64,000 nt of DNA from an uncultured Candidatus Saccharibacteria bacterium (lineage in GTDB: Bacteria; Patescibacteriota; Saccharimonadia; Saccharimonadales; JACDBH01). This document shows positions 29,463 to 50,965 of this stretch, piece by piece. The stretch is taken from assembly GCA_965231105.1 (NCBI GenBank), contig OZ246417.1, positions 640,908 to 704,907 on the forward strand, given 5' to 3'. The stretch's first letter is position 1. Each line of letters begins with the position of its first letter. The notes beneath the pieces are model-generated. The model worked only from the letters and a program-made list of their open reading frames with translations. It was not told the DNA's origin and made no database searches. Made by a program: the position numbers and the translations under genes.

Positions 29463-29560
29463 CAAAAAAGATTTTGCTTCTGCTCGGAAGACTTTATCGC
29501 CAGATCGGACTCTAACCGTTGCGGCACAGTGGAGGAATTTCACCTCACTTCCAGCTGTTT
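29463..29560 (-). promoter_or_regulatory. Structured 5' leader (possible antiterminator plus closing-helix element)
   Basis: The hairpin GCAG-AA-GCAAAA-TCTT-TTTTGC-CTGC (29483-29458) shares 4 nt with the terminator 5' arm. Upstream, a 7-bp helix with a 1-nt bulge (29554-29548 with 29490-29483) encloses 57 nt that include a GAGG/CCTC hairpin. Confidence 0.35.
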
Positions 29561-29633
29561 GTATTGTTAATAAGTCGAAGTATAAACCAATCCGGTTACG
29601 CTAGATATAGTATTTTTTGCTGCATTTGGTGCG

Positions 29634-33178: not shown

Positions 33179-33541
33179 TTACTTTGTCTTAGCTACCGTT
33201 GAGCGAACAAGCTCGATAAGGGTCTGCGGAGTGAGGTCCGCCTTAAGCTTATGATTATGCGCACCAAGCTTGAGAGCTTGGGTTACCATTTCTCCCGAAG
33301 AAAGGTTACTTAAGATAATTATTTTGGCATTTAAATCTCGGGCCTTTTGCAAGAATTCGATACCATCCATTACGGGCATCATGAGATCCAGCAGGACGAT
33401 ATCATAACTTTGTTCTTTACAGAACTCTAAGGCCTCACGGCCATTTGCTGCTACATCAACTGTAAAATCGGCCGACTTTAAAATAATATTAAAGGCTTCG
33501 CTAATTAATTTCTCATCTTCGACTAGCAAAACTTTTGTCAC
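33179..33541 (-). CDS. Stand-alone response-regulator receiver domain (CheY-like)
   Basis: KVLLVEDEK, DIVLLDLMMPVMDG, IIILSN and a conserved Lys region, with no output domain. GTG 33541 preceded by AAGGGGA is preferred over the track ATG at 33589. Confidence 0.8.
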   Translation of the reverse strand: MTKVLLVEDEKLISEAFNIILKSADFTVDVAANGREALEFCKEQSYDIVLLDLMMPVMDGIEFLQKARDLNAKIIILSNLSSGEMVTQALKLGAHNHKLKADLTPQTLIELVRSTVAKTK

Positions 33542-34727
33542 CGTTATTCCCCTTTGGAATGATGATAGCAAAGTCTGACCCTTTGCCAATAGCAGATGTC
33601 ACCTTGATCTTTCCGCCATGCAGCTCCGTTACTTTGTTGGCCCAATATAGTCCCAGGCCACTGCCTCCAACACTATCAGACAAACTGTTTGGTATCCGGC
33701 CAAATTTAGTGAAAAGCTTCGCTATATCGCTTTTCTTTATGCCTACACCATTATCAGCAATTGATATCCGCGCAAAATTATGAGCATTGCTGAGCGTAAT
33801 CGTTATTGTGCCCTTCTCGGGAGTATATTTACTTGCATTATCTATTAAATTCTCTAAGACCATGCGAAAGCGCATACTGTCCACAATGACCGGCATGCTC
33901 TTTCTAGAAGATACGAGACTAACCTGCTGCTTACGAGCCTTGAAAGAGTCAATCAGCTCATCAATGATGTCTTCGACCATTTCGTATATGTCTGTCTGGC
34001 TTTTCTCTAACACTACCTTCCCCGCATCAACCTGTGCTACTCGCAGGAGGTCGTTTATCATATCGATCTGCCGGTCGTTACTGTCGTATGCTTTTTGCAC
34101 AAAATCACGCTGCTGTTCGGTAAGCGCGCCCGCATAACCCTGGAGTAATAGTCCAAGGAACTGCTTTACGCCCGTTGCAGGCGTACGAAGCTGATGTGAA
34201 GCAAGTGATATAAACTCATCTTTTGACGTATTAAGTTTTTCAAGTTCACCTTGCTGCTCGCGTAACCGTATATTGGTGAGACTGAGCTCATCTTCAAATA
34301 ACTTGCGTTCCGTTAGGTCTCGGGTTACTTTAGCAAATCCTACATGTTTGCCATTTTCATCCTTGAGGGCAGTAATAATCACGTTTGCCCAGAAACGTGT
34401 ACCGTCTTTTCGAATGCGCCAGCCTTCGTCTTCAATGCGCCCGTGTTTTAGGCTCTCCGCTAACACCCGCTCAGGTTTCCCCGCTTCTTTATCTACTTTT
34501 GGGTAAAAAATCGAAAAGTGTCTCCCTATGATCTCTTTTGCCTTATAGCCTTTAAATCTTTCGGCACCTTTGTTCCAGCTCGCAACATTACCCTTAGGAT
34601 CAAGCAAGAAGATGGCATAGTCCTGAACACTTTCTATGAGAATACGATAGTGCTCAAGCTGATCAAGCGCACTCTGCCGCTCCTTTATATTAAGGCTAGT
34701 GAGATTCGATTTCTTCTTTAGCGTCAT
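33513..34727 (-). CDS. Cytoplasmic PAS-domain sensor histidine kinase
   Basis: 404 aa with no TM. PAS (GNVASWNKGAERFKGYKAKEIIGRHFS), H-box SHQLRTPAT, N-box DNASKYTP, G-boxes DNGVGI and GGSGLGL. Confidence 0.85.
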   Translation of the reverse strand: MTLKKKSNLTSLNIKERQSALDQLEHYRILIESVQDYAIFLLDPKGNVASWNKGAERFKGYKAKEIIGRHFSIFYPKVDKEAGKPERVLAESLKHGRIEDEGWRIRKDGTRFWANVIITALKDENGKHVGFAKVTRDLTERKLFEDELSLTNIRLREQQGELEKLNTSKDEFISLASHQLRTPATGVKQFLGLLLQGYAGALTEQQRDFVQKAYDSNDRQIDMINDLLRVAQVDAGKVVLEKSQTDIYEMVEDIIDELIDSFKARKQQVSLVSSRKSMPVIVDSMRFRMVLENLIDNASKYTPEKGTITITLSNAHNFARISIADNGVGIKKSDIAKLFTKFGRIPNSLSDSVGGSGLGLYWANKVTELHGGKIKVTSAIGKGSDFAIIIPKGNNGDKSFASRR

Positions 34728-34932
34728 TAGAGAATAAGGTTAGGTATCATCTATCGATTTAAACAGAATAATTTATGAACAGAGTAATAATTCCAACACG
34801 GATAACCAGAAAAACAAAAAGCGCTTCTTACAGCATGCTTATGCTTGGCTCACAACGATAGAGGAAGTTATAACCACACCGAAACTAGGTTTTACTTCAC
34901 TGGTAGATTCAGATTGTAGCAGCTGCGCTGAT

Positions 34933-35226
34933 TTAAAGTAGGTTTGAGGCGACACAATTTTTGGCAGCCTTGATAACTCCAACATGGAAATTTCCCTCGC
35001 CTAGTTCTATAACTTCTTCCTCAGGTATAAACCATTGTCCTGCGCCATCTTCTCCAACTTGTACCACTCGGACTTCATGTCTGTCAGTAGGAAGAAATTT
35101 CATATCAAATAGCCCCAGCTCGGAGCCATCCTTTAATGTAATAGGTTCTCCAATTGGCTGCACGTCCACGTTGGGATTATTGGCATATTGTTCGTAAAAA
35201 TATTCAAGTACATTTCTCTTTGTCAT
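34933..35226 (-). CDS. 97-aa hypothetical protein
   Basis: MTKRNVLEYFYEQYANNPNVDVQPIGEP.. The track version (to 35301) runs through the tRNA and its hairpin, so I use ATG 35226. Confidence 0.45.
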   Translation of the reverse strand: MTKRNVLEYFYEQYANNPNVDVQPIGEPITLKDGSELGLFDMKFLPTDRHEVRVVQVGEDGAGQWFIPEEEVIELGEGNFHVGVIKAAKNCVASNLL

Positions 35227-35233
35227 AAAACAA

Positions 35234-35257
35234 AAAATACCATCGAAATGGTATTTT
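35234..35257 (-). terminator. Perfect 10-bp hairpin + U-run after tRNA-Asn
   Basis: The minus strand reads AAAATACCAT-TTCG-ATGGTATTTT, then TTGTTTT. Confidence 0.5.
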
Positions 35258-35266
35258 GTAAATGCT

Positions 35267-35341
35267 TGGCTCCGGGGACTGGATTCGAACCAGCGACCCA
35301 TTGGTTAACAGCCAATTGCTCTACCGCTGAGCTACCCCGGA
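35267..35341 (-). tRNA. tRNA-Asn (anticodon GTT), CCA encoded
   Basis: TCCGGGGTAGCTCAGCGGTAGAGCAATTGGCTGTTAACCAATGGGTCGCTGGTTCGAATCCAGTCCCCGGAGCCA. It folds by hand into a cloverleaf: 7-bp acceptor, GCTC/GAGC D-stem, ATTGG/CCAAT anticodon stem with loop CTGTTAA, and T-loop TTCGAAT. Confidence 0.9.
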
Positions 35342-36551: not shown

Positions 36552-36671
36552 ACTTCTTTATGCCCTCGTATGTCACCTGTGCACAACCCCTGATTGTTTA
36601 GGGGTAAAAAGCATAAACAATTCCGCCATTAGGTGATACACTGTGTAACAGATTGAATACTGAGGGAAGTT

Positions 36672-39600
36672 GTGTTCCGCCGTCTTATAACAAATAGTGC
36701 GCAATTACTCCGTACGTTTTGGAAGCGTTATTTACGTGTGTTTTTGGTAAAAAGTGCCCGGCTTACTCATAAATATTCTCGTAAGTTTTCCCGCATTATG
36801 GCAAGGGTTACTAAAAAAACTGCCCGCTTTCTCCATCACCACGCCGCCAAACGGCCCCATAATCATCTGATGCAAAGATGGCAATGGTATGGCAAGTGGC
36901 ATGAATGGAACTTTCATCCTCATGTCCATTTTTCTATTCTTGCCGTATACGTCGTGATCGTCGGAGCTATAGTGCTTTCATCTTATGGCCGAGTTAAGGC
37001 GGTTTCTGATCTCTTTCATGACTGGGACTTTGATAACGGTTCAGAATTTAGTTTAGAGAACGGTGTTGAAACGAGTGGCACCAGCGCTCGCCTTAAGGCA
37101 CAAAACTACACCAGTGACGCTAACACCGCTGCGCTCTTTCATTTTGATGAGATAAATGGCAGTTCGGCCGATGACGCCTCAAGCAATAATAACGATGGCA
37201 CGGTAACAAACGGCACATTTGGTTCTGGACAGTTAAATAATGCTGTTTCTCTTAATGGTACCAGTGCGTTTGTACGAGCAAACGACAGTGCGTCGCTTTC
37301 CTTCCAGCAGTCTCATACGCTTGAGGCCTGGACAAAATTTTCCTCAACCTTCGATGCAACCTCTCACAATAACCGACAAGGTGTGATTAATAAGGGCAAT
37401 TATCAGCTCTACTATGATCATGAAACCGGAAAAGTGGTTTATGAGATTTCTCCGAATGATGCCAATGACTGGGAACAGGCAGGGGGTGGCAGCACTACAA
37501 CTGGTGCTTCTACTGACGGTAGCTGGGATCTGAATGGTAAATTAGCTATCGAAGACTCAGTCGTTGTTGGCAGCAACTATTATGTAGGGCTCGGTAATGC
37601 CGTAAGCGATGCAGAAGTTTGGATGTGGAATGGTACAACTTGGGCTCAAATAGGTGGTGACGGGCTCAATAGCGGTTGGGCTGATGGTACCTATGAAGCA
37701 GTTACTTCTCTGAAAGCCTATGGCACAGATATTATCGCGGGCTTGGGCACAAGTGCGGCGGGAGATGCGGAAGTTTGGCGCTGGAATGGAAGTGCATGGA
37801 CGAAGATTGGTGGTGATGCAAGTGGTACGAGCGGACAGAGCTGGACTAATGCTTATGAATCTGTTCGCACCATGACGGTTAATAGCTCTAATTTATATGT
37901 GGGTCTCGGTGATAGCAGTGGCGACGCAGATATTTATACATGTAATCTTGCCGCAACCTGTAGCACGACTGCTGGCTGGACAAAGATTGGTGGTGATGGC
38001 AACAACGGCGTCACGACAGGTTGGGGTACCGGATATGAAGCCGTAACGGCTATGGATGTATCAGGAACAACCCTTATCGTCGGCATCGGTACTACCGCTG
38101 GTGATGCTGAAGTGTGGAGCTGTACAATTGGCAGCTGTGCCGCAGCAACTAACTGGACAAAGATTGGTGGTGATGGAACAGGAACAAGTGGACAGAGTTG
38201 GGTAACCGCAGTCTATGAATCAGTCACCGGCATAGAAGTTGTAAGCTCAACACTGTATATCGGGCTTGGCAACAGTGCCGCCGGTGAAGCTGAAGTCTGG
38301 AGCTGTACCGTAGGGAGTTGTGCGGTTGCTTCAGGCTGGACTCAAATTGGTGGTGATGGTGTTGGTTCCTCTTGGAATACTAACTACGAACAAGTTTGGG
38401 CGCTTGAATCAGATGGTACCTACTTATTTGCCGGTATTGGTAATACCGGTGGAGACCAGGAAATTTGGCGCTGTACATTATCGGCATGTTCTACATGGAC
38501 TCAAATTGGTGGTGATGGTGTTGGGAGTGGCTTTACCGGCACCACCCATGCACGCGTCCAGTCTCTCGCCATTGGAGGTTCTACACTGTATGCCGGCATT
38601 ACTGGAGCGGCTGCAGCAAACGCAGCCGAAGCTTGGACTTGTGACAGTGGATGTTTTAACTCATCCCCCGCCGCCGCCTGGACTCGCATTGGTGGCGACT
38701 TTCTGAATAAGTCTTGGGGCTTTAATACGATGCGTAGTGTTGAGGTACTTGCTACAGCCGGCGGAAAACTGTATGCCGGAACGGGTATTACCGATGCAGG
38801 CAACGCTCAAGTGTGGGAGTACAACGGAACAACCTGGACCATGATCGGAGGTCAGGGCATAAATAGCAGTTGGGCTTATCGTACCTATGAAGTCGTAACG
38901 AGCATGGTCGGTAATAAAGGTAATTTGTATGTTGGACTCGGGTCAACAGCTGGCGATGCGGAAGTTTGGATGTGGAATGGCAGTACCTGGACCCAACTTG
39001 CAGGTGATGGAAGTGGAACGGGCGGACAAAGCTGGGGCACCGGCTATGAACAAGTAATGGCCATGGCCGTTTCTGGTAATACCTTGCTCGTTGGGCTTGG
39101 TATTAATGGTAATGACGGTGAGTTGTGGAGCTGCAATATTAGCGGTAGCTGTACGAATACCAGCGGTTGGACAAAACGTGGAGGTGATGCAACCGGTACA
39201 GGTGGACAGAGTTGGACTAATGCCTTTGAACAAGTAGTGAGTTTGGCGGTCAGCGGTACAAATGTATATGTAGGTGTTGGAAGTAGTGCGGGAGATGGCG
39301 AGATTTGGACATGTGATATCGGAGCGACTTGTAGCACCACAGCCGGGTGGTCAAAGATTGCGGGAGATGGCGTTAACAGCTCATGGAATACCAACTACGA
39401 AACGGTTGAGTATCTTGTGTACTATCAGGGCAAACTTATCGCTGGATTAGGTAACAGCGCAGGAGATGCGGAAGTCTGGGAGTTCAACGGTACGAATACT
39501 TGGACTCAAGTGGGTGGTGATGGACTCAATAACTCATGGGCTGATGCAACCTATGAGCGAGTCCGCACAATGACTTCCTATAACGGTGAATTATATGCAG

Positions 39601-42600
39601 GTCTGGGTGTCACTGCAGGAGATGGTGAGGTATGGCGATACGATGGTTCTACCTGGACTAAGGTGGGTGGTGATGGACTCAATAACGGCTGGACGGGTAC
39701 AGAAGAATCGGTGGGTGCGTCGAGCGTCTATAAAGGTAGGCTTTTCGTAGGTACAGGCGATGGACAGAATGCTGATGCAAAGGTCTGGGCATATGGTAAT
39801 AACGCCGTCCTGGAATCAGCTGCTACATCGCAGGATACCAACTGGCATCATATAGCCGCTACTTACGATGGCAGTACGATGAAAATCTTTATTGATGGTA
39901 CAGAAAACGCGACTCGTAGCGCGACATTACTTATGCCTGATAAGAATACCCCTTTGTTTGTTGGTACCATGGGCGGTTCACGTGAGGGTGGCATGAGCCA
40001 AGGTTACTTTACGGGCTCAATTGATGAGGTGCGTATAAGCAACTCTGCTCGTTCAAGTTTTACTACCCTTCCCTATCCCGCTGCTGCTCAAACGGTTACC
40101 CCAACCGCCGCCGTGTATATAAGTGGCGTAGAATCTTGGGATGGATTTACTACTGATGAAACTGCGAATGGTGGCACCATTACGTATCGATTATCCGACG
40201 ATAACGGGGCTACCTGGAAGCGTTGGGATGGAAGTGGTTGGGTTTTGTCTGCCAATACCACAGAAGCCAACAATGCTGCTACCATTAATACCAACATTGC
40301 GAGCTTCCCTGTCACGTTTTATGGCCTTAAGTGGCAGGCGATACTCACCGGTAACGGCAATCAGCAAGTTACTCTTAATGAAGTAAGTCTGGCGGCCACT
40401 TCCGATATAGCTGCTCCGTCTGCAAACGCGTCAACTATCTTAGGCTATAAGAGCCAGGGTGGTACTCAATTAAATTCTAACGATTGGTCTAACGGCTCCT
40501 CACCATACTTCAGCTGGACGGCAGGAACAGATGGCGGTGCGGGCATAAAGGGTTACTGTCTCTACCTCGGTACAGACAACACAGCAGATCCCGTTACAAC
40601 AAAAGGCTTATTAGGTACCAGCCCACTCTATACCGGCGGACATTGTCAGTTTGCAGTAAGCGGTACTTCTATAGATCTTGCAACATCTGGTTATATAGGT
40701 ACCGCTATGACGACTTCAGCTAACGCATATTACTTACTCGTTAAGGCCATGGATAATGCGGGAAATGTTTTTGGTAATACGGCTGAGTTCCACTTCCGTT
40801 TTGATAATACCCCACCGTCCAACCCTGGCTTTATAACTGCACCTTCAGGATTTATTAATACGAAGAACGCTACCCTTACTTGGCCCACTATTGGCGGACA
40901 GGCAGCCACAGATACAGGCTCAGGTGTAGCCGGTCTGCAATACCGCATTAATAGCACGACATGGTACGGCGATAGTCACAGCGGAACCGGAGATATCAAT
41001 GATCTTCTTACGAACGATGGCTCGTATGCAACAACTGACCCGCCCGATTTCGACAACATTGATGAAGGCATCAATACTGTTTACTTTAGGACATGGGATA
41101 CGGCAGGTAATGTCACGAGTAGCTACGTAACGGCTGCCTTGAAGGTAAACACAGCCGGCGCTCCTTCTGAACCCCAGAATGTTACCCCCACCCCTTCAAG
41201 CAATACCACGAACTCCTTTGCCTTTTCATGGTCACAACCCGCAAGCTTCATTGGCGATGCGGACAATCTTACTTACTGCTATACCGTCAATACGCTGCCA
41301 AGTATTAGTACATGTACTTTTACGTCGGCAGGCGTGACCAGTCTTGGTGCCGGACCATATGCCACCCAGCCTGGTACGAATACTATCTACGTTGTAGCCC
41401 GAGATGAATCAAGCAATATAAATTATGCCAGCTATGCTAGCGCTAACTTTGCCGCCAATACTCCTTCCCCTGGCATTCCGACCAATACAGACATTGTGGA
41501 CGTTTCTATTAAATCAACAGGTAACTGGCGCTTAGCCTTAACATGGGATGCACCATCCGACGTAGGAGCTGGCATAGCCAGCTATAAGATATACCGCTCC
41601 CTTGATGGCGTATCATTTAATTTTGTTGGTAGTAGCACGAGTACGACATACATTGATGCAGGTTTAAGCCAACAATTCTACTACTACCGTGTGCGTGCCT
41701 GTGACAGCACAAATAACTGTGGCGCAGATAGTGCCATTGTTTCAATGTTGCCAACCGGTAAGTTTACGTCACCGGCCGCCCTAACAAGCGATCCTGTCGC
41801 AAGCAACCTAACTACTAAGAAAGCAACAATTACATGGGCTACAGATCGTGCCAGCGATTCTAAGGTTGCGCTTGGCACAAGCAGTGGCCAGTATGGCGCA
41901 TCAGAAATTGGTAACTCTAGCCAAACGAATCTTCACACCCTTCAACTCGATAACCTCTCTGCAGGTACAACGTATTACTATGTTGCGAAGTGGACAGATG
42001 AAGACGGTAACACCGGAACGAGTCAAGAATTCACCTTTACGACTGCTCCTGCTCCTATTATTAAAGAGGTGGAAACACTCTCGGTGAGTTTGACCGGCGC
42101 AACCGTTACATTCACTACCACAGGAGCAAGTAAAGTTAATCTCTACTACGGACTTAGTGAAGGTTTTGGTGGACTCAAGACTGTAAATACTTCACAGTCT
42201 GAATCTGAATATTCATTTGCGCTGGATGGTCTCAATGACGGCACAAAGTATTTCTACCGTCTCAGTGCATTTGATAGTGAAGGCGGTGAGTATTTAGGCA
42301 ACGTCTTCTCATTCAATACACCGCCTCGTCCTCGCATAACAAACCTACGCTTCCAGCCCGTTGAAGGCAAACCTACAAGCACACAGTCTGTAACATGGAA
42401 CACAAACGTAGCATCGACTTCAATGGTGAGCTATAGCAAGGTAGGTGGGAACAGTATCGACATGCAGCAGTCAACTCTTACGACCAACCATGAGGTCATC
42501 ATTAGTAACCTTGAGGACGACAGCGAATATACTATTATTGCCCAAAGTCGAGATGAGTCTGGTAATCTTGCCACATCCGACCGTCAGCAATTTAGAACCG

Positions 42601-42977
42601 CTCTTGATACTCGCCCTCCAACGGTGAGTGAAATTAACGTAGAATCATCAGTGCGAGGCACCGGTGCCGAGGCCCGTGGACAGGTTATTATTTCATGGAA
42701 GACCGACGAGCCATCTGCCAGCCAAGTAGCCTATACAGAAGGCTCGAACGCAGTGACCTTTAACAGCAAGACTGCTGAAGATGGCACGCTCACGACTGAC
42801 CATCTTGTTATTGTGTCTGACCTTCCTACTTCAAAGGTATATAGCCTGCAACCACTTTCGAAAGATAAAGCCGGTAACGTAGGAGCGGGAGAGGTTCAGT
42901 CGGCAATCATTGGACGAGCCAATGAAAGCGTTCTTACTATCATTCTCAATACATTGCAGAAAGTGTTTGGGTTCTAG
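36672..42977 (+). CDS. Giant (2101 aa) membrane-anchored surface protein: LamG - 14 tandem propeller-like repeats - LamG - multiple FN3 domains
   Basis: Basic His/Trp-rich N-terminus and one TM (FSILAVYVVIVGAIVLSSY). LamG-like segments follow: LFHFDE..DDASSNNNDGTV..NAVSLNG, later NWHHIAATYDGSTMKIFIDG..GSIDEVRISN. Between them lie 14 repeats built on (G)DAEVWxWNGxxWTxIGGDG..YE.V..LYVGLG. The C-terminal third consists of FN3-like modules (e.g. LALTWDAPSDVGAGIASYKIYRS). Confidence 0.85.
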   Translation: MFRRLITNSAQLLRTFWKRYLRVFLVKSARLTHKYSRKFSRIMARVTKKTARFLHHHAAKRPHNHLMQRWQWYGKWHEWNFHPHVHFSILAVYVVIVGAIVLSSYGRVKAVSDLFHDWDFDNGSEFSLENGVETSGTSARLKAQNYTSDANTAALFHFDEINGSSADDASSNNNDGTVTNGTFGSGQLNNAVSLNGTSAFVRANDSASLSFQQSHTLEAWTKFSSTFDATSHNNRQGVINKGNYQLYYDHETGKVVYEISPNDANDWEQAGGGSTTTGASTDGSWDLNGKLAIEDSVVVGSNYYVGLGNAVSDAEVWMWNGTTWAQIGGDGLNSGWADGTYEAVTSLKAYGTDIIAGLGTSAAGDAEVWRWNGSAWTKIGGDASGTSGQSWTNAYESVRTMTVNSSNLYVGLGDSSGDADIYTCNLAATCSTTAGWTKIGGDGNNGVTTGWGTGYEAVTAMDVSGTTLIVGIGTTAGDAEVWSCTIGSCAAATNWTKIGGDGTGTSGQSWVTAVYESVTGIEVVSSTLYIGLGNSAAGEAEVWSCTVGSCAVASGWTQIGGDGVGSSWNTNYEQVWALESDGTYLFAGIGNTGGDQEIWRCTLSACSTWTQIGGDGVGSGFTGTTHARVQSLAIGGSTLYAGITGAAAANAAEAWTCDSGCFNSSPAAAWTRIGGDFLNKSWGFNTMRSVEVLATAGGKLYAGTGITDAGNAQVWEYNGTTWTMIGGQGINSSWAYRTYEVVTSMVGNKGNLYVGLGSTAGDAEVWMWNGSTWTQLAGDGSGTGGQSWGTGYEQVMAMAVSGNTLLVGLGINGNDGELWSCNISGSCTNTSGWTKRGGDATGTGGQSWTNAFEQVVSLAVSGTNVYVGVGSSAGDGEIWTCDIGATCSTTAGWSKIAGDGVNSSWNTNYETVEYLVYYQGKLIAGLGNSAGDAEVWEFNGTNTWTQVGGDGLNNSWADATYERVRTMTSYNGELYAGLGVTAGDGEVWRYDGSTWTKVGGDGLNNGWTGTEESVGASSVYKGRLFVGTGDGQNADAKVWAYGNNAVLESAATSQDTNWHHIAATYDGSTMKIFIDGTENATRSATLLMPDKNTPLFVGTMGGSREGGMSQGYFTGSIDEVRISNSARSSFTTLPYPAAAQTVTPTAAVYISGVESWDGFTTDETANGGTITYRLSDDNGATWKRWDGSGWVLSANTTEANNAATINTNIASFPVTFYGLKWQAILTGNGNQQVTLNEVSLAATSDIAAPSANASTILGYKSQGGTQLNSNDWSNGSSPYFSWTAGTDGGAGIKGYCLYLGTDNTADPVTTKGLLGTSPLYTGGHCQFAVSGTSIDLATSGYIGTAMTTSANAYYLLVKAMDNAGNVFGNTAEFHFRFDNTPPSNPGFITAPSGFINTKNATLTWPTIGGQAATDTGSGVAGLQYRINSTTWYGDSHSGTGDINDLLTNDGSYATTDPPDFDNIDEGINTVYFRTWDTAGNVTSSYVTAALKVNTAGAPSEPQNVTPTPSSNTTNSFAFSWSQPASFIGDADNLTYCYTVNTLPSISTCTFTSAGVTSLGAGPYATQPGTNTIYVVARDESSNINYASYASANFAANTPSPGIPTNTDIVDVSIKSTGNWRLALTWDAPSDVGAGIASYKIYRSLDGVSFNFVGSSTSTTYIDAGLSQQFYYYRVRACDSTNNCGADSAIVSMLPTGKFTSPAALTSDPVASNLTTKKATITWATDRASDSKVALGTSSGQYGASEIGNSSQTNLHTLQLDNLSAGTTYYYVAKWTDEDGNTGTSQEFTFTTAPAPIIKEVETLSVSLTGATVTFTTTGASKVNLYYGLSEGFGGLKTVNTSQSESEYSFALDGLNDGTKYFYRLSAFDSEGGEYLGNVFSFNTPPRPRITNLRFQPVEGKPTSTQSVTWNTNVASTSMVSYSKVGGNSIDMQQSTLTTNHEVIISNLEDDSEYTIIAQSRDESGNLATSDRQQFRTALDTRPPTVSEINVESSVRGTGAEARGQVIISWKTDEPSASQVAYTEGSNAVTFNSKTAEDGTLTTDHLVIVSDLPTSKVYSLQPLSKDKAGNVGAGEVQSAIIGRANESVLTIILNTLQKVFGF
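37608..39810 (+). repeat. 14 in-frame tandem repeats of 51-61 codons inside the giant gene
   Basis: The D-A-E-V-W-type cores start at 37608, 37764, 37923, 38103, 38286, 38454, 38622, 38802, 38955, 39114, 39294, 39465, 39621 and 39774. An exact 29-nt duplicate TGGACTCAAATTGGTGGTGATGGTGTTGG occurs at 38337-38365 and 38496-38524. Confidence 0.85.
41790..42900 (+). repeat. Four tandem ~90-95-aa FN3 / purple-acid-phosphatase-N-like modules at the C-terminus of the giant protein
   Basis: KATITWATDRASDSKVALG..TTYYYVAKWTDEDGN; ATVTFTTTGASKVNLYYG..TKYFYRLSAFDSEGG; QSVTWNTNVASTSMVSYS..SEYTIIAQSRDESGN; QVIISWKTDEPSASQVAYT..KVYSLQPLSKDKAGN. Confidence 0.7.
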
Positions 42978-42978
42978 T

Positions 42979-43761
42979 ATGGCTGATCCAAAAGTATTGG
43001 TAAAAGTAAGTAACATTGAGCAAAGCTTCCAGGTAGGAGATGAGCTTATTCATGTCCTTAAGAAATGCGATTTTGAGATATTAAATAATACATTTAACAT
43101 CATCTTCGGCCAATCCGGCTCAGGTAAATCTACCCTGCTTAATGTGCTAACCGGGTTACAAAAACCCACGAAAGGCACCATTGAGTTTGAGGGTGAACGC
43201 GTTTATGAATTAAGTCCTAATGACCTGGCGTATTTCCGCGCAAACCGCATTGGGATCGTCTATCAGCAAAACTTCTGGGTTAAGAGCCTTAACGTTATAG
43301 AGAACGTTTCTATTCCGCTCTTTTTCTTAGGATACAGCCGTTCTATGGCCGCTAAAAAAGCCTACGCCGCACTTGAAATGGTGCACATGGAAAGCTATGC
43401 CAAAAAATTTCCGCTCCTCCTATCCGGTGGTGAGCAACAGAGAATTGCAATGGCGCGAGCCATTGTTAATGACCCCCTCTTTATCATCGCCGATGAACCT
43501 ACCGGAAGTCTTGATAGCACAAGCGGAGACATGATCATGAACCTGCTTCACGATTCACAGGTAAACTTTGGCCGTACCATCATCCTTGTTACGCACAATA
43601 TGGAATACCTCCCGCTCGCAGATCACTTGCTTCATATTCAGGACGGTGTTGTTGAACAAATGGTAAACGTGAAGGAAGCCACCGGAACGCTCATTGAGGA
43701 CATGAAAACCCGTATTATGCATTTGCAGGAGCTCAAAGAGAAGGATGCACGACATGGGTGA
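42979..43761 (+). CDS. ABC transporter ATP-binding protein (MacB/LolD/FtsE-type)
   Basis: Walker [10 protein letters not shown], signature LSGGEQQR, Walker [15 protein letters not shown] 42979 lies 1 nt after the giant gene's TAG, and the track start at 42910 lies inside the giant gene. Confidence 0.9.
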
Positions 43762-44992
43762 AAATGGTAAGAAAATCTTTGGTCGCAAGCGTATCTATAC
43801 CTCCATTCACCGGAAGGTCCTATTTTATATAGCCTGGAGAAACCTTACGAGCAAACGCCTCCGCTCGCTCCTTACTATATTCGGCGTGGTCATTGGTATA
43901 GGAGCCATCTTCTTCCTAATGTCATTTGGGCTTGGTTTGCAGCACTTAGTAACCACTCAGGTTATCGGCGATCAATCTATTAAATCTCTTGACATCACCT
44001 CTCCCAATTCAAAACTCATAAAGCTCAATGATGAAGCAGTGAATAAAATCCGTACCTATCCGCATGTTGAAAAAGTTGGCGTGCAGTATTCATTCCCTGG
44101 CAGTCTTAAAAACCAAGGTGCTGAAATCGACAGTGTCGTGTATGGTGTTGATCTTAATTATCAAGAAATTTCCAACCTTACCCTAATCGCCGGACGATTG
44201 TTACAGAACGAAGATTTTAAAGCCCTTGTTATCAATACTTCGGCAATGGAAGCAATAGGAATTAAAGACAAGGACGCTGCCTTAGGACAAGAGATTGCAT
44301 TAACTGTTCCACTCCAGAGCGTAACGACTGATAAAAAAGAGGTCTCGGATAACTTTAAAATCGTTGGAGTTATAGATTCCGGATCGGGCAGCGAAGTCTT
44401 CTTGCCGAGTGCTGTTTTTAACGTCGCGGGTGTAGAAATCTACGAAAACGCCCGAGTGATTGCTGATAACTCAAGTAATGTTGGCTCAATCCGAGTGCAG
44501 GTACAGAGCTCTGGTTTTGAAACTACCTCACCCGTTGATACGCTCGAGCAGATTAATCAAATCTTCAAATTCTTCACCTTCATTCTGATCGGCTTCGGAA
44601 GCGTTGGTATGATTGTTTCAATCTTAGGTATGTTCAACACCATGACCATTTCCTTACTTGAACGCACCAAAGAAATCGGACTTATGATGGCGCTGGGTGC
44701 AAGGAATTCGGACATGCGTAAGCTGTTTGTTTTTGAGGCAGTTATTATTTCGTTTATGGGTGCGTTAATCGGTATTGGCCTGGCTATCTGCCAGGGTATG
44801 ATTGTTAACTTCTTTATGAACCAGTTCGCAAAGCGCAGAGGTGTACAGGAAAGCTTTATGCTCTTCTCTTTCCCCTTATGGGCAATTCTTCTCTTAACAG
44901 GCTTTACCGTTGTTGTGGGGCTTTTGGTTGTATTCTTCCCTGCCAGACGCGCTCAGAAAATCGATCCTATCGATGCGCTTCGGCGTGAATAA
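43754..44992 (+). CDS. FtsX/MacB-type ABC permease
   Basis: TM1, a ~230-aa extracytoplasmic domain, three C-terminal TMs and a terminal IDPIDALRRE. The start overlaps the ATPase stop (ATGGGTGA). Confidence 0.85.
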   Translation: MGENGKKIFGRKRIYTSIHRKVLFYIAWRNLTSKRLRSLLTIFGVVIGIGAIFFLMSFGLGLQHLVTTQVIGDQSIKSLDITSPNSKLIKLNDEAVNKIRTYPHVEKVGVQYSFPGSLKNQGAEIDSVVYGVDLNYQEISNLTLIAGRLLQNEDFKALVINTSAMEAIGIKDKDAALGQEIALTVPLQSVTTDKKEVSDNFKIVGVIDSGSGSEVFLPSAVFNVAGVEIYENARVIADNSSNVGSIRVQVQSSGFETTSPVDTLEQINQIFKFFTFILIGFGSVGMIVSILGMFNTMTISLLERTKEIGLMMALGARNSDMRKLFVFEAVIISFMGALIGIGLAICQGMIVNFFMNQFAKRRGVQESFMLFSFPLWAILLLTGFTVVVGLLVVFFPARRAQKIDPIDALRRE

Positions 44993-44993
44993 A

Positions 44994-45455
44994 CTACTCG
45001 TTTATGTCCGCACGTTCTTTAATGGTAGTTAGGCGCGGTACAAGGGCGCGAACTGCCTCGTCTAACCCTAGGACATGTAATGCTCCAATAAGCACATAGA
45101 CATCATCAATTTTCTTCATAGCAGGACGCGCTTCGGCCTCAAGCTCTTCCAGGAGCTTATGGACACGAGTAATAAGCCACTTCTCTTCACGCTCAATAAC
45201 AGACTTAAGCGCACCGACTGGACCAAGATCTGCGCTTACCACTTCGAGCGAACGAGCCGAACGATCGCGCTTTCGTAAGTGCCCTCTTTTAATAAGATTA
45301 TTAACATGCAATGCAACGGTAGCAACAGAGTTATATTGCATACCATTCATAATTTCGCGGTAGCTTGGACTATAGCCATGCTCACGAATAAATGCCTCTA
45401 TAAACTCCAGTAGTGCTCTTTGTTTTTTTGTTGGACGAACAGCTTCCTCGCTCAT
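44994..45455 (-). CDS. LexA-type winged-helix DNA-binding protein lacking the S24 peptidase domain
   Basis: 153 aa. KKQRALLEFIEAFIREHGYSPSYREIMNGMQYNSVATVALHVNNLIKRGHL matches the LexA N-terminal domain. The C-terminal ~75 aa are helical, without Ala-Gly cleavage-site or GxSM/Lys protease motifs. Confidence 0.65.
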   Translation of the reverse strand: MSEEAVRPTKKQRALLEFIEAFIREHGYSPSYREIMNGMQYNSVATVALHVNNLIKRGHLRKRDRSARSLEVVSADLGPVGALKSVIEREEKWLITRVHKLLEELEAEARPAMKKIDDVYVLIGALHVLGLDEAVRALVPRLTTIKERADINE

Positions 45456-45889
45456 CGCTTTCTCCTTGGCTTAAGGCCTTTCTTATGTTGCTCAGGGAAG
45501 ACCCAAAATCGATACCATAGGTAGTTCCAAACGGTAAAGAACCCGCTCGAAACAAACTGGCCAATGTACGGTGTGATACCAAGACTCTTGAGGCCTGCCA
45601 CAATAAGGTAATCGAGCCCAAAGTTAACAAGTGTAATAAGCATATACCTGCCTGTCGTTTCAGCAAGATGCCCCTTCAAATGCGGATTACGAAATACCCA
45701 GTAGCGCTGCAGTATGAAGTTAACTGTCCAGCCAATGATATTTGCCGTTAGTTTTGCCCACCACAAACTCCAGCCTAAGCCTTTGTCGGCGATGAAAAAT
45801 ACAAGATAGCCCGTCCAGAAATATGCTCCACCACTGATCATATATTCAACAAACTGTATGAGCAGTTTCTTCTGACGTTTTCGTAACAT
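45452..45889 (-). CDS. GtrA-family membrane protein
   Basis: LIQFVEYMISGGAYFWTGYLVFF..NFILQRYWVF..WNYLWYRFWVF, four TMs. ATG 45889 preferred because the track start overlaps the upstream gene. Confidence 0.75.
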   Translation of the reverse strand: MLRKRQKKLLIQFVEYMISGGAYFWTGYLVFFIADKGLGWSLWWAKLTANIIGWTVNFILQRYWVFRNPHLKGHLAETTGRYMLITLVNFGLDYLIVAGLKSLGITPYIGQFVSSGFFTVWNYLWYRFWVFPEQHKKGLKPRRKR

Positions 45890-45896
45890 GCTTATG

Positions 45897-47219
45897 TTAT
45901 AGTGTAGCGCGTTTTTCGCTTTTTGTACTCTTTTTTGTGTAGATTGCAAAACCCACTGCACCAAAGAATACATACGCAAGTGTGTCGTCTGCCCAGGCGT
46001 GAGATACAAGGTTAACAACTATAAGACCGAGTAGGGAAGCGAGTAGGGCTCGAGGTACCCCTTCGTCTCGTCGCTGCCATAACTTGTAGCCGATAACCAC
46101 TAAGATTCCGATAAGTAAGGCAATGCCCACCATTCCCATCTCTTGGCCGATCTGTAAGAAGAAATTTTCATTTATTGATGCCATAGCCTTATCATTACGC
46201 AAGGAAGCGGGTCCTGCACTTCCAACACCCTTACCAAACGGATCACTCAGTACGGCTTGAGCACCTTGTTTCAGCCCGGTGAATCTTTGGGCGTTTGAGC
46301 TTTCGGGAGAAGCCGATAGCTCATTGGTGTGGAATACCAAATTCTGGAACGTGTCATTATGACGAAGGATGTATACAGCACTAGCACCTATCACAATAAA
46401 AATACCAAGTGTGATATATAATGCTTTCTTATGCTGATTGGTACGTGCTGACAAATAAAGAAAACTTACTGCCGTAACAAATAATCCAATCCACGCACTT
46501 CTTGAGTAACTACCAAACAATACTGCCAAGCCCACGATAAAAAAGCCTAGAATTACGCGTTGCTGCCTCTTAAAAAATAGCGCAGCCGATCCGGCCAGGG
46601 CAAGTACAGGCACGAGGTATGCTCCAAGTGGATTGGGCCCTCGTAGCGTTGACTGAATGCGCGCAAAATCTTCCTTATTATCAACTGCTTGATAGGCGGG
46701 AAGTGTTGCATCACCGTAACCGAAATGACGCAAAAAATCGTTAGGCAATACCAAGAGCTGCAGTAGTCCAAATATCCCTACTGCAGCGGCCGGCCATAAT
46801 ATCCACCGCAGCCATTTTGTATCTTTGGGTAACTTATGCGCTGCAATTATAGTAATTAAGAGAAAGATAAGATATCTGCTATCAATAACCGCCCCATATA
46901 CTGCCGCCTCAAAACCAACTCTCCGAGCCATAATCCCTGAAAAAGTCATTAACAGGGTTAAGAGGAGCATAAGACATACGAGTTGAACGAGACGATCAGT
47001 TTTGAGCTTTGCCCATAAAACATCATCACGCATAACCACTATTGCTGCAGCAATACTTAGCAGCATAAGAAGTGCTTCTTTCCAAAGACGTACTGCGTCA
47101 AAATATCCAAAGTTACTGGCAAACCATGCCGTGAAGAAAGCGTGAAAGGGAACAAGCAAAAAGATTGCCGCAGTTCCAGCGATGAGGAAACGAGCTGCAA
47201 CGGAGTTCTGCTTCTTCAT
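45897..47219 (-). CDS. O-antigen ligase/polymerase-like (Wzy_C) polytopic membrane protein
   Basis: 440 aa, at least 10 TMs. FGSYSRSAWIGLFV motif and a periplasmic loop before the last TMs. Confidence 0.7.
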   Translation of the reverse strand: MKKQNSVAARFLIAGTAAIFLLVPFHAFFTAWFASNFGYFDAVRLWKEALLMLLSIAAAIVVMRDDVLWAKLKTDRLVQLVCLMLLLTLLMTFSGIMARRVGFEAAVYGAVIDSRYLIFLLITIIAAHKLPKDTKWLRWILWPAAAVGIFGLLQLLVLPNDFLRHFGYGDATLPAYQAVDNKEDFARIQSTLRGPNPLGAYLVPVLALAGSAALFFKRQQRVILGFFIVGLAVLFGSYSRSAWIGLFVTAVSFLYLSARTNQHKKALYITLGIFIVIGASAVYILRHNDTFQNLVFHTNELSASPESSNAQRFTGLKQGAQAVLSDPFGKGVGSAGPASLRNDKAMASINENFFLQIGQEMGMVGIALLIGILVVIGYKLWQRRDEGVPRALLASLLGLIVVNLVSHAWADDTLAYVFFGAVGFAIYTKKSTKSEKRATL

Positions 47220-47332
47220 ACCTCTAGTATACGGGCATTATGCAATAGTGAACAATTTGCGATCTTTTGTGGTAGATGGTCCAATTTTTATGTAACTTTC
47301 GCTTATTATTCTATGAAATACCCTATGCGATG

Positions 47333-47360
47333 TTGTGAGGTAATGAACATAGATTATACT
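47333..47360 (+). promoter_or_regulatory. Promoter candidate for the glycan-initiation operon
   Basis: TTGTGA (47333-38), 16-nt spacer, TATACT (47355-60). It lies 14 nt before ATG 47374, which implies a very short leader. Confidence 0.3.
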
Positions 47361-47373
47361 GTCTAGTTAGAGC

Positions 47374-48813
47374 ATGAAGAATAACGCCTCATTAACATAT
47401 GGTTTCTTCCTGATAATTGGTGATTTCCTTGCCCTTGTGGCAGCTTTTGTAACGGCATATATTCTTCGCGTATCAATTGATGCTCGTCCTTTAACCGCAC
47501 AGATTACTTCTCGTGAATATCTGCGCGCCTTTCTCTTCTTGTTACCTTTTTGGCTGATTATTTTTGGATTACTCGGCCTCTATAACAAGAATGTTTATGA
47601 GAAGCGCTTTTCAGAATTAGGCCGCATTATAATAGGGTCGGCCATTGGTATCCTTTTCATTATTGGGTACGGCTTCTTTACAGATCAAGCAATCTTCCCC
47701 GCTCGCTTAGTTCCTATCTATGGACTTGGGCTGGGTCTTTTCTTCCTTATAGCATTTCGTACACTGGCTCGTTCAATTCGACGTGAACTCTTTAACTACG
47801 GTATTGGGATTAATAACGTCCTTATTATTGGCGACACGCCGGTTACCCGCGAACTGCTGGTTTCATTGTCCGATATCAAGCTTACGGGCTACCGCGTAGT
47901 AGGTGTGGTAGGGGGCAAGAAGCATCGTATTGGTGACTTCCCTTCAGAGCTTGTTTTTGACACATTTGAAACAGCCATAAAAAAGCTCCGCAAGGAGCCG
48001 TTCCATAGCATTATTCAGACTGAACTTTACGCCGAGAACGGACATAACAGCGAAATTCTTACCTATGCTCAAGAAAACCACATTAGCTATCGATTCGTAC
48101 CCGGTAATAGTGAACTTTTTGTAGGAAATATAGAAGTTGATCTTTTCCGCTCAATTCCTGTTATTGCCGTGCACCAAACCGCATTGATTGGTTGGGGACG
48201 AATTGTAAAACGGTTATTCGATCTCGTGTTTGGTACTATATTTTTCCTTATCGCCCTCCCTATCATCTTATTCATCAGTCTGCTTATGATCGTGTTTGAT
48301 CACGGCGATCCAATCTTTGGTCAAACTCGTCTGGGACGCTTTGGACGTAAGTTTAAGATTTATAAATTCCGCACATATAAACACGCCTATAACCGCATGA
48401 CGCCGGAAGAAGGCTTCGCAAAGATGGGCCGACCTGAATTAGCCATAAAATACCGTGAGAATGGCGATTTCCTCGTGAACGATCCACGAGTTAGTCGTTT
48501 GGGTCGTTTCTTGCGCAAAACAAGCTTGGACGAGTTACCGCAGCTGTGGAATGTTGTGAAGGGAGATATAAGTCTTGTTGGACCACGACCACTTGAGCCA
48601 TTTGAGCTTGATCAATACAAACACAAGAATCTTATGCTCAGCGTTAAGACCGGCTTAACCGGACTTGCTGCTATATCGGGACGACGGGATATTCCGTTTG
48701 AGGAGCGTCGTAAACTGGATCTTTACTATGTACAAAACTGGAGTTTTTGGGGAGACATTGTCATCCTACTTAAAACTGCGTCTGTTGTACTGTTTCACCG
48801 CGGAGCACGATAA
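47374..48813 (+). CDS. Polyprenyl-phosphate hexose-1-phosphate transferase (WbaP/CpsE-type initiating sugar transferase)
   Basis: 479 aa. N-terminal TMs and a central Rossmann-like region. The C-terminal domain has [54 protein letters not shown]. Confidence 0.9.
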
Positions 48814-48816
48814 TAC

Positions 48817-49926
48817 ATGAAGGTTGCGATTGTTCACGATTGGCTCGTAGGCGGAGGGGCTGAAAGGGTAGTCGAGCAATTACATGTGCTGTACCCCGAC
48901 GCACCTATTTATACTTCCTATGCAACCGAGGAGTGGCGGCAAAAACTTGACGGTAAAGTCGTTACGGGTTGGCTTCAGCATTTGGGCTCCATAAGAAAAT
49001 TCATCCCTTTTCTTCGTATTTGGTGGTTTACTCATTTAGATCTTAAGGGTTACGATCTGGTTATAACAAGTTCAGGCAATGGCGAAGCAAAGGGTGTCAT
49101 TACGGACGAGCGTACGGTTCATATTAATTATTGTCACACTCCTACTCACTTTTACTGGCGTCATTATGATCAATATCTTAAAGAGCCAGGTTTTGGATTC
49201 CTTAATCCTATCGTCCGACTGGGTCTACGCCTTTTCGTACGCCCCTTGAAGAAATGGGACTACGAAGCTGCTCAACGAGCCGATTATGTTCTTGCTAACT
49301 CATCTCACACTCAAGACGAAATTAAGACATTTTATAATCGTGAGTCAACTATTGTACATCCACCCGTTAACGTAGAGCGTTTTCATATTGCTCATATTCC
49401 AAAGCGAGAAGGCTATGTAACGGCTGGACGCCAGGTACCTTATAAAAAGACTGCTCTTATTATTGAAGCTTGCAATCAACTTCAGCTGCCCTTAACGGTA
49501 ATCGGGAAAGGTCCCGAACACCAAGCATTAATACGCATTGCAGGACCGACCATAAAACTCGTTGAGTACGTCACAGACAATGAAATGCCTACATACCTTG
49601 CAAGCAGCGAAGGCTTCATCTTTGCAGCTTATGAAGACTTTGGTGTCACGCCTGTAGAAGCCATGGCAGCTGGCACTCCCGTATTGGCATTTAATAAAGG
49701 TGGGGCACTGGATTATGTCGTGCCTGGAAAAACTGGCGAATTCTTTAGTGAACAATCAATAGAAGCGTTAGTTGAAGCACTTAAGAAATTTAATCCCACA
49801 CAATATGATTCTGCCACTGTTAGTGCGCATGCTCAGAGCTTTAGCGAAGCACGATTCCGTCATCAAATCGAAAGTTTTGTCGGCAACATTAAGTTAAGCA
49901 GTCCTGTCGATATAACGTTAGAATAG
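48817..49926 (+). CDS. GT4-family (GT-B) glycosyltransferase
   Basis: 369 aa. MKVAIVHDWL..GGAERV N-terminus and EDFGVTPVEAMAAGTPVLA motif. Confidence 0.85.
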   Translation: MKVAIVHDWLVGGGAERVVEQLHVLYPDAPIYTSYATEEWRQKLDGKVVTGWLQHLGSIRKFIPFLRIWWFTHLDLKGYDLVITSSGNGEAKGVITDERTVHINYCHTPTHFYWRHYDQYLKEPGFGFLNPIVRLGLRLFVRPLKKWDYEAAQRADYVLANSSHTQDEIKTFYNRESTIVHPPVNVERFHIAHIPKREGYVTAGRQVPYKKTALIIEACNQLQLPLTVIGKGPEHQALIRIAGPTIKLVEYVTDNEMPTYLASSEGFIFAAYEDFGVTPVEAMAAGTPVLAFNKGGALDYVVPGKTGEFFSEQSIEALVEALKKFNPTQYDSATVSAHAQSFSEARFRHQIESFVGNIKLSSPVDITLE

Positions 49927-49948
49927 TAAAGGTAAACGAGGGTACGTA

Positions 49949-50965
49949 ATGAAAAATATTCTAGTTACGGGTGGTGCAGGTTTTATTGGCAGCCATACTG
50001 TTGTCGAACTTCATGATGCAGGCTACCGCCCTATTATTGTAGATAATCTCAGTAACTCGTTAGAAAGCGCAATTGACGGTATCACAGCCATAATTAAAGA
50101 AAAGCCGGTTTTTTATAAGACTGACTATACGGACACTGACGCCCTGCAGAAAATAATTAAGGACGAATCTATTAATGGTGTTATTCATTTTGCCGCACTA
50201 AAAGCAGTGGGGGAGTCCACACAAGAGCCGCTAAGATACTACGAAAATAATGTTGCTGGGTTTATCGGCCTTTTAAAGACCCTTGAAGAACATGGCATCC
50301 CTCTTGTCTTCTCATCTTCCTGTACGGTGTACGGCGAGCCCGACAAACTGCCAGTCAATGAGCAGGGCGTTTTCAAGCCAGCCGAATCACCCTACGGTTC
50401 TACGAAACAAATGGACGAGACTATCTTGCGTGACGCCACAAGGGTAAGTCGCAAATTAAAGAGTATAGCACTTCGTTACTTTAATCCTATTGGCGCTCAT
50501 CCTTCCGGTCTTATTGGCGAATTACCTCTTGGGATACCAAGCAATCTATTTCCTTTCCTTACCCAGACTGTAGCAGGTATACGTGATGAGCTTACCGTGT
50601 ATGGTAATGATTACGATACACCTGATGGGAGCTGTATACGTGACTACATTCATGTGGTAGATCTCGCAAAGGCGCATATTAAAGCGCTGGAATACCTGGA
50701 TAAACAACCTGCTGCATACTTTGACGCCTTTAATCTCGGCACTGGTCAAGGCAGCAGCGTATTAGAAGTCATTAATACATTTGAGAAAGCCACGGGTAAA
50801 AAAGTACCGCACAAAATTGGCGCTCGCAGACCAGGCGATGTGGTAGCAACGTACGCAGATCCTTCAAAAGCCAACAGTGAGCTTAACTGGAAAGCCGAAA
50901 AGACATTGGCGGATGCATGCAAGGACGCTTGGAACTGGCAAGTTAAATTAGGTGAAAAAGCCTGA
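49949..50965 (+). CDS. galE: UDP-glucose 4-epimerase
   Basis: 338 aa. ILVTGGAGFIGSH, SSSCTVYG, YGSTK, DGSCIRDYIHVVDLA. Confidence 0.9.
   Translation: MKNILVTGGAGFIGSHTVVELHDAGYRPIIVDNLSNSLESAIDGITAIIKEKPVFYKTDYTDTDALQKIIKDESINGVIHFAALKAVGESTQEPLRYYENNVAGFIGLLKTLEEHGIPLVFSSSCTVYGEPDKLPVNEQGVFKPAESPYGSTKQMDETILRDATRVSRKLKSIALRYFNPIGAHPSGLIGELPLGIPSNLFPFLTQTVAGIRDELTVYGNDYDTPDGSCIRDYIHVVDLAKAHIKALEYLDKQPAAYFDAFNLGTGQGSSVLEVINTFEKATGKKVPHKIGARRPGDVVATYADPSKANSELNWKAEKTLADACKDAWNWQVKLGEKA

Follow-up and report, generated by a model that had tools for sequence, protein, structure and literature searches.

The stretch of DNA analysed here, hereafter the window, comprises 64,000 nucleotides of an uncultured Candidatus Saccharibacteria bacterium (GenBank assembly GCA_965231105.1, contig OZ246417.1, positions 640,908 to 704,907), and it raises the question of why an open reading frame (ORF) for a giant predicted surface protein should be followed at once by genes for an ATP-binding cassette (ABC) ATPase and a permease of the MacB/FtsX type. 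A first-pass annotation, made from the sequence of the window, had described the three genes as tightly packed and co-expressed, and the gene anatomy bears this out. The giant ORF, preceded by a GAGG motif, runs without interruption from its GTG start over 2101 codons. Its TAG stop (42975-42977) is separated by 1 nt from the ATPase ATG at 42979, and the start of the permease gene overlaps the 3' end of the ATPase gene by 17 nt. A promoter and terminator scan returned no match above chance. In the following, we present evidence that the three genes travel together and that the ABC pair is associated with the C-terminal end of the giant protein, and we propose, with moderate confidence, that the latter is a secreted surface fibre with a C-terminal tail that a dedicated ABC machine of type VII would either hold or extract.

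BLASTP with the giant protein retrieved more than 120 clusters of full-length relatives (1944-2141 aa, nearly all at 95-100% query coverage), which share 52-61% identity with it by BLASTP and 54-63% in a MAFFT alignment. The named relatives are Candidatus Saccharimonadales or Saccharibacteria, with a few recorded as Patescibacteria group or Candidatus Nomurabacteria. When one genome of each GTDB species was scanned for the pattern, 215 genomes proved to have a relative; 80 loci were taken from these for a linkage test by tblastn of the window proteins. Seventy-eight of these were informative, the contig stopping within ~135 nt of the giant gene in the remaining two. The ATPase (43-74% identity) and the permease (41-67%) lie directly downstream of the giant gene in 78 of 78, and, after correction for unaligned residues, the ATPase start lies between -5 and +38 nt from the giant stop, with 3 nt as the median. 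Beside the module, the 80 loci keep none of the remaining window neighbours, be it the 389-aa divergent gene, the LexA-like, GtrA and Wzy-like genes, or the kinase/regulator pair. The three genes are one conserved module of Saccharimonadia. The co-expression and functional linkage suggested at first reading are supported by this near-zero spacing, and also by the paralogous modules and the distant Patescibacteria described below; an ABC pair with unrelated neighbours in the relatives, which the annotation had named as the observation that would speak against its proposal, does not occur. For Southlakia epibionticum, an oral epibiont available in culture, the annotation tables assign PF16656 or PF13385 to no protein, and the MacB-type pairs are not preceded by a large gene. 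An ortholog of the giant protein appears to be absent from this organism, so that the published transposon sequencing (Tn-seq) gives no direct information.

Within the giant protein, conservation is uniform across the extracellular part and peaks in the C-terminal domains (per-column identity ~0.8), the N-terminal 60 residues being variable. The importance of the C-terminus emerges from a second module that adjoins the first in four Saccharibacteria loci (L016, L070, L072 and L073). It consists of a 1381-1445-aa protein, an ATPase, and a permease 42-45% identical to the window permease. In these paralogues, a DUF2341-containing head replaces the LamG-propeller head, and the whole stalk from about residue 1220, together with the tail, is retained. 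The L016 paralogue retains the His/Trp motif that precedes the signal peptide core in the giant protein, the L073 paralogue carries an ordinary short signal peptide ending in ALA and followed by STFTQNDWSGG, and L073 has one ABC pair for two tail-bearing genes, both of which lie ahead of it.

Using the last 216 residues of the giant protein as query, an exhaustive HMMER search returned 5169 representatives of the C-terminal module at E<=1e-3, 2492 at E<=1e-10 and 740 at E<=1e-30. The tail motif lies within the last 45 residues of 98 of the 150 best matches, which are 183 to 6321 aa long and vary in their N-terminal parts, versus 5 of 2980 control windows. In other Patescibacteria, hundreds of proteins of 250-6300 aa have this module at their C-terminus. 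A second tail flavour, LLTPQKxESIIQIIIxNFExTFGW followed by a few, often basic, residues, has named bearers recorded as Patescibacteria group, Candidatus Nealsonbacteria, Candidatus Falkowbacteria and, in one case, 'PVC group bacterium'. A metagenome scan with five modules of this flavour yielded 539 relatives, of which the best 80 loci, ranked by similarity to one query, were kept. In 69 cases the DNA extends for 1.2 kb or more beyond the end of the tail gene; 25 of these ends are directly followed by an ATPase and a MacB_PCD/FtsX permease, five more by an ATPase and then the contig end, and 39 have no pair downstream. A few have a pair upstream or a partial one. Pfam confirms the module in L096, L129 and L158, the last encoding a 1997-aa protein with a Ycf48-like propeller head. 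The C-terminal modules of these distant lineages are ~30-35% identical to that of the window. Since paralogues and distant modules vary their heads and retain the C-terminus, the constant partner of the ABC clade is the C-terminal stalk with its tail, the heads being interchangeable. The annotation had suggested co-folding the FtsX extracytoplasmic domain with the N-terminal 'membrane-proximal region', a choice we do not retain, the stalk and tail being the element that co-occurs with the pair. A 273-aa metagenome protein, P0422, combines a tail-module match with a MacB_PCD annotation; the two may be truly fused, or joined by a gene-call fusion or a frameshift at a module junction. The features of the module are collected in Table 1.

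Table 1. Features of the three-gene module in the window, and location of the paralogous modules in other Saccharibacteria loci.
Feature	Position	Strand	Basis or remark
Shine-Dalgarno-like GAGG	36662..36665	+	~6 nt 5' of the GTG start; read from the sequence
Giant ORF, 2101 aa + stop	36672..42977	+	Translation; full-length orthologs by BLASTP
Basic n-region, residues 1-84	36672..36923	+	Composition; ortholog alignment
h-region, residues ~85-106, and c-region ending V-K-A (residues 108-110)	36924..37001	+	Candidate signal-peptidase I site between A110 and V111
N-terminal half of Laminin_G_3 jelly roll, residues ~140-262	37089..37457	+	Pfam match of the chimera
14 Kelch-like 4-stranded blades, predicted as two tandem 7-bladed beta-propellers, residues ~293-1048	37548..39815	+	AlphaFold2, Foldseek
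C-terminal half of the split LamG, residues ~1049-1135	39816..40076	+	Pfam Laminin_G_3, residues 1023-1128, E 2.5e-16
Stalk, ~nine beta-sandwich (FN3/Pur_ac_phosph_N/Ig-like) domains, residues 1136-2075	40077..42896	+	Pfam, AlphaFold2, alignment
C-terminal tail, residues 2076-2101, ...AIIGRANESVLTIILNTLQKVFGF	42897..42974	+	Amphipathic, family signature
ABC ATPase, 260 aa, LolD/FtsE/MacB-like nucleotide-binding domain, catalytic motifs intact	42979..43761	+	
Type VII ABC permease, 415 aa: transmembrane segment 1, MacB periplasmic core ~residues 64-280, transmembrane segments 2-4 (FtsX domain)	43745..44992	+	
Paralogous module, L016	3025-9396		
Paralogous module, L073	103-9887		
Paralogous module, L072	tail gene end near 3780	-	
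Paralogous module, L070	607-1857		

The stalk is the most conserved part of the giant protein and contains three invariant Cys pairs. It matches the Pfam families Pur_ac_phosph_N (58 bits, cut-off 30) and fn3 (32.9 bits, cut-off 25), and its AlphaFold2 (AF2) model (predicted local distance difference test, pLDDT, 76) consists of beads of beta-sandwiches whose fold matches are FN3/Ig arrays, so the long FN3 array described at first pass stands, with about nine domains. These domain types and the conserved Cys pairs support an extracytoplasmic location of the protein. In the tail, the amphipathic stretch IIGRASDSVLTIILNTLQKVFGF is near-invariant, and the ending ...IIGRASDSVLTIILNTLQKVFG[FL] is nearly invariant among orthologs. 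The hydrophobic moment of the tail is 0.33-0.44, and its last 19 residues form, when modelled alone, a short helix of low confidence (pLDDT <50). The C-terminus, ...IIGRANESVLTIILNTLQKVFGF, has neither the LPXTG motif of a sortase substrate nor a segment of transmembrane (TM) length.

At the other end of the protein, residues 1-84 carry a net charge of +19, with 10.7% His and 6% Trp, and residues 55-84 harbour the conserved His/Trp motif HHHxAxRPHxHLxxxxxWYxxWHxWxxHxxxH. They are followed by the single hydrophobic stretch of the protein (~20 residues, res ~85-106). Ala110, at position -1 of the candidate cleavage site, is nearly invariant among orthologs, with V, T or A at -3 and a conserved SDLxDxWDFS thereafter. 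Many family members have an ordinary signal peptide, in which the conserved mature start TFTWxQxxWxGG comes immediately after AxA. The conservation of AxA at the place where the ordinary signal peptides of relatives end favours cleavage, in which case the N-terminus would not hold the mature protein; the signal peptide of the giant protein is probably cleaved after Ala110. The annotation had described a His/Trp-rich basic cytoplasmic head followed by one TM segment: the composition is as it stated, but a reading of the segment as a permanent anchor is not retained in view of the conserved AXA and the relatives' ordinary signal peptides. The form (R/K)PHxxLx5WYxxWHx4HxxVH of the motif, just ahead of the signal-peptide core (window 36834-36923), recurs in the distant family members L158:2958-3200, P0373, P0250, P0251 and P0255. 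The idea that it marks a general signal-peptide class was rejected, as within 1.8 Mb of Saccharibacteria DNA the motif is confined to the giant-protein family. The His/Trp n-region looks like a family-specific extended signal peptide.

The head has an unusual architecture. The C-terminal LamG half alone matches Laminin_G_3 with 60.6 bits (profile 45-146), and the N-terminal half alone gives no match. When the two were fused in a chimera (residues 140-262 and 1040-1135), the score rose to 83.9 bits over profile positions 1-146 of 151. This full-length match of the fused halves identifies one complete Laminin_G_3 jelly roll, split by an inserted double propeller, and rules out two independent LamG domains; the LamG-propeller-LamG layout of the annotation is thus replaced by a single domain with nested propellers. 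Its count of 14 propeller-like repeats is confirmed by the AF2 model of the head (residues 100-1140, 19 sequences, pLDDT 80, predicted template modelling score 0.79), which shows fourteen 4-stranded blades. The best PDB matches of this model in Foldseek are tandem double 7-bladed propellers, namely, Elp2, the GH74 enzyme OXG-RCBH and the sensor domain of BT4663. The match to the GH74 oligoxyloglucan cellobiohydrolase has an E-value of ~3e-15 to 1e-14, and non-enzymatic WD40 double propellers equal it in score. Tandem Repeats Finder (TRF) detected no DNA-level tandem repeats in the giant gene, which indicates that the blades are ancient repeats and not an assembly artefact. In the propeller region (window 38001-40000), G+C content rises up to 0.505, against ~0.44, with a GC skew of +0.23; the rise is consistent with Gly/Trp-rich repeats and does not fit foreign DNA. 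Between 37940 and 39335 (residues 424-887), seven Cys-x4-5-Cys loop insertions occur in the blades, e.g. WSCTIGSCAAATNW, where most orthologs have WRWNGxxW. They account for ~60 extra residues of the window protein, and their sequence suggests lineage-specific disulfide-stapled loops.

As for the ABC pair, the ATPase matches Pfam ABC_tran (E 5.7e-28) with Walker A, signature, Walker B and H-loop (VTHN) all intact, and has the Q-loop, LSGGQ and catalytic Glu expected of a nucleotide-binding domain (NBD). The permease matches MacB_PCD (67.7 bits, cut-off 27, residues 41-254) and FtsX (69.6 bits, cut-off 25.5, residues 284-408); it has four hydrophobic segments, i.e., the 4-TM layout with a large extracytoplasmic domain between TM1 and TM2. 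The nearest solved relatives of the pair are YtrF, MacB, Spr0694-0695 and LolF. The best-scoring curated models for the ATPase, namely, LolD, FtsE, MacB and bacteriocin export, all remain below their cut-offs. For FtsEX, the FtsX models reach 27-37 bits against cut-offs of 225-255, and FtsE 181 against 264.85; no hydrolase or activator domain was found in the module. For LolCDE, lolCE reaches 53.9 bits against 362 and LolD 200.9 against 307.75, with no Lol partners among the annotated neighbours, the 64-kb window as a whole not having been searched for them. For MacAB-TolC, the MacB model gives 105-168 bits against 966, the NBD is encoded by a separate gene, and no neighbour gene matches the HlyD/membrane fusion protein (MFP) family. 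Given these scores, well under the curated LolD, FtsE, MacB, LolC/E and FtsX cut-offs, the pair classifies by its sequence as type VII (MacB/FtsX-fold) and as the equivalog of no named system. Among the best 120 permease homologs listed, all are orthologs, and permease orthologs carry the label 'ABC-type antimicrobial peptide transport system permease' in some sources. In the distant modules L096:8821-10164 and L129:8683-9951, 10031-11767, the ATPase has a C-terminal extension of ~200 aa (422-447 aa in total) and one of the permeases an N-terminal extension of ~180 aa (578 aa in total); neither extension matches Pfam.

We infer the following mechanism from the observed gene anatomy, domain folds, conserved linkage and co-variation of the C-terminus with the ABC pair. 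The giant protein would be exported by the Sec pathway via an unusually long signal peptide with a conserved His/Trp-rich n-region, and cleaved after Ala110. The mature fibre would expose a lectin-like head (LamG with the nested 7+7 propeller), presumably at its distal end, and this head may bind glycans, as the tandem double-propeller fold class does elsewhere. A stalk of about nine beta-sandwich domains would join it to the amphipathic C-terminal tail near the membrane, where the ABC complex, presumably ATPase2-permease2, would act on the conserved C-terminal module through a contact with the tail. The complex might dock the tail and thereby tether the fibre to the cell; otherwise it might spend ATP on extracting the tail from the outer leaflet and pass the fibre to the outside, in the way that LolCDE handles lipoprotein anchors. 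The annotation had seen in the protein a natural candidate for host or substrate attachment; an identity of 53-63% over ~2000 aa across the whole class is atypical for a host-specific adhesin.

Several observations weigh against this proposal. The ~20-residue hydrophobic stretch and the conserved n-region are also compatible with an uncleaved signal anchor, and the tail is too short and too polar for a membrane span. The head matches double propellers in general (8-14% identity), which makes glycan binding a lead only. In the distant relatives, the pair comes directly after only ~45% of the tail genes, in a sample of 80 metagenome loci that are those most similar to the query rather than randomly drawn, that are often limited by contig ends, and whose taxonomy rests on few named relatives; a pair may be shared by several proteins, or a tail may in some cases function without one.

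The N-terminus could be given a more permanent role, in which a TM anchor leaves the His/Trp head in the cytoplasm and the ABC pair packs on the anchoring helix, moving the membrane-proximal region of an outward-facing adhesin. This geometry would account for the strongly basic head being followed by the one hydrophobic segment, ~20 residues long, and for a His/Trp motif that is conserved ahead of that segment and recurs in distant members, which suggests a cytoplasmic or interfacial function; there is also a precedent in the single N-terminal TM helix of MacA, which packs on MacB in MacAB-TolC structures, e.g. 5nik. We nevertheless consider it unlikely, as paralogues and many relatives retain the ABC pair with ordinary short signal peptides and no His/Trp head, the conserved AXA is followed by a conserved mature N-terminus, and the C-terminus is the element common to all ABC-linked members. 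The same constancy of stalk and tail, with heads as different as DUF2341 and a Ycf48-like propeller, speaks against an FtsEX-like arrangement, in which the ABC pair would allosterically switch an enzymatic head, either a GH74-like glycan hydrolase or a cell-wall remodelling enzyme. That FtsEX controls EnvC, PcsB, CwlO and RipC, i.e., that a type VII ABC acts on an extracellular partner through a helical element, is a well-established precedent, and the GH74 oligoxyloglucan cellobiohydrolase is among the top Foldseek matches of the head; however, WD40 double propellers score equally, Pfam and NCBIfam give no hydrolase family match, and the FtsX scores fall far under the cut-off, all of which makes this arrangement very improbable.

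The ABC pair might instead be a pump of the MacB/SalXY type that exports, or gives immunity to, a small molecule, a lipid or a peptide, and is merely co-transcribed with a surface protein that, for example, binds or requires the exported compound. The antimicrobial-peptide-transport labels of the permease orthologs, the sub-threshold ATPase scores to the LolD, FtsE, MacB and bacteriocin-export models, and the envelope polysaccharide genes nearby in the window are in line with such a function. However, the conserved module includes no peptide precursor, adaptor or lipid-synthesis gene, the polysaccharide neighbours are not conserved, and duplication has copied the pair along with tail-bearing proteins, next to which it is still found at ~30-35% identity across Patescibacteria. 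The spacing in the orthologous loci is also tight, at a median of 3 nt. A pump of this kind is accordingly quite improbable. To the view that adjacency is inherited synteny of no functional meaning we give next to no weight: the close orthologs all come from one class, where shared ancestry could keep gene order, but every other neighbour has been reshuffled while the triad was kept, and the arrangement recurs in paralogues and in lineages with ~30-35% C-terminal identity. A fibre whose tail would be handled by the ABC pair thus remains our preferred explanation.

Around the module, a protein with a LexA DNA-binding domain is convergent with the permease, with one base between the stop codons, and is followed by an envelope polysaccharide cluster (together, window 44994-50965) comprising GtrA-like, Wzy_C/O-antigen-ligase-like, Bac_transf sugar transferase, GT4 and NAD-dependent epimerase/dehydratase genes, which is not conserved beside the module. 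Upstream, on the minus strand (window 33179-35341), lie genes for a PAS histidine kinase and a single-domain response regulator, along with a tRNA-Asn (35267-35341); weakly similar kinase/regulator pairs are found near the module in some relatives, in variable positions. Further upstream, also on the minus strand, an AdoCbl-II (cobalamin) riboswitch aptamer (29494-29570; 37.4 bits for an Rfam gathering score of 36.5) precedes a 553-aa ORF (27769-29430).

Patescibacteria account for a substantial part of bacterial diversity, and their life in attachment to other cells makes surface proteins central to their lifestyle. The parts of the module are of known kinds, i.e., a MacB/FtsX-fold ABC pair and LamG, propeller and FN3 domains. 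The annotation had supposed that the pairing with such an ABC system was undescribed, and indeed we found no description, in the searchable literature, of a type VII ABC pair linked to large secreted proteins that share a C-terminal module; the Vampirococcus paper mentions giant surface proteins and no ABC link. Our results suggest that these tiny epibiotic bacteria mount large surface proteins in a manner not yet described. More tentatively, and with less confidence than in the tail-handling function itself, we can propose that stalk, tail and dedicated ABC pair constitute an unrecognised surface-protein sorting or anchoring system of Patescibacteria, a counterpart of LPXTG/sortase or Lol, which would serve hundreds of proteins with interchangeable heads, a subset of them coupled to the His/Trp extended signal peptide. 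The C-terminal module with its tail signature, the energy-using type VII ABC partner and the class-wide giant member are all searchable. The jobs of mechanotransmission ABC proteins have so far been cell division, lipoprotein release, efflux and lipid extraction, and anchoring or extraction of the tail by the ABC pair would add a fifth. Such a system would also provide a handle to label or remove whole sets of surface proteins in organisms that are hard to study.

The comparison with known systems highlights what is shared and what is particular to the module. For the head, GH74 xyloglucanases and the hybrid two-component sensor BT4663 likewise have two tandem 7-bladed propellers, as predicted here; unlike in these proteins, the propeller pair of the giant protein sits inside a LamG jelly roll, and identity is no more than 10-14%. 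Giant adhesins of type I secretion (LapA/RTX, with an HlyB-type ABC, MFP and outer membrane factor, OMF) are also repetitive surface proteins encoded beside ABC genes and carry C-terminal information relevant to the ABC. The present ABC pair is however of the MacB/FtsX type and not an ABC_membrane (HlyB) exporter, and the giant protein has an N-terminal hydrophobic signal of the Sec type; neither this protein nor its neighbours gave a Pfam match to RTX repeats, a retention module, an MFP or an OMF, and an outer membrane is not expected.

The protein layout resembles that of the C-terminal sorting systems LPXTG/sortase, PEP-CTERM/exosortase, PGF-CTERM/archaeosortase and the C-terminal domain of type IX secretion. 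There, too, the proteins have an N-terminal signal peptide (in some cases of a dedicated class, YSIRK being one), a distal head that varies and binds the ligand, and a stalk of Ig/FN3-like repeats, and many proteins of a genome or lineage that otherwise differ share one short, conserved C-terminal signature. Unlike in these systems, the tail has no LPXTG, PEP or PGF motif and no membrane-spanning segment, the Saccharibacteria type also lacks a terminal basic cluster, and the linked partner is an ABC ATPase with its permease instead of a transpeptidase or protease. The genetic layout, on the other hand, recalls the type VII systems FtsEX-EnvC/PcsB/CwlO/RipC, LolCDE-LolA, MacAB-TolC and YbbAP-TesA, in which an NBD is set apart from a 4-TM permease bearing a large extracytoplasmic domain (MacB_PCD, Porter/Sabre type), and the pair is genetically tied to a protein acting outside the membrane. 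The organism is nonetheless a monoderm-type Patescibacterium, in contrast to the diderm context of Lol, and where these systems employ a MacA/HlyD adaptor, a LolA-like carrier or a coiled-coil hydrolase activator, all absent from the module, the partner here is a secreted multi-domain fibre of 2000 aa, defined by its C-terminal stalk and amphipathic tail.

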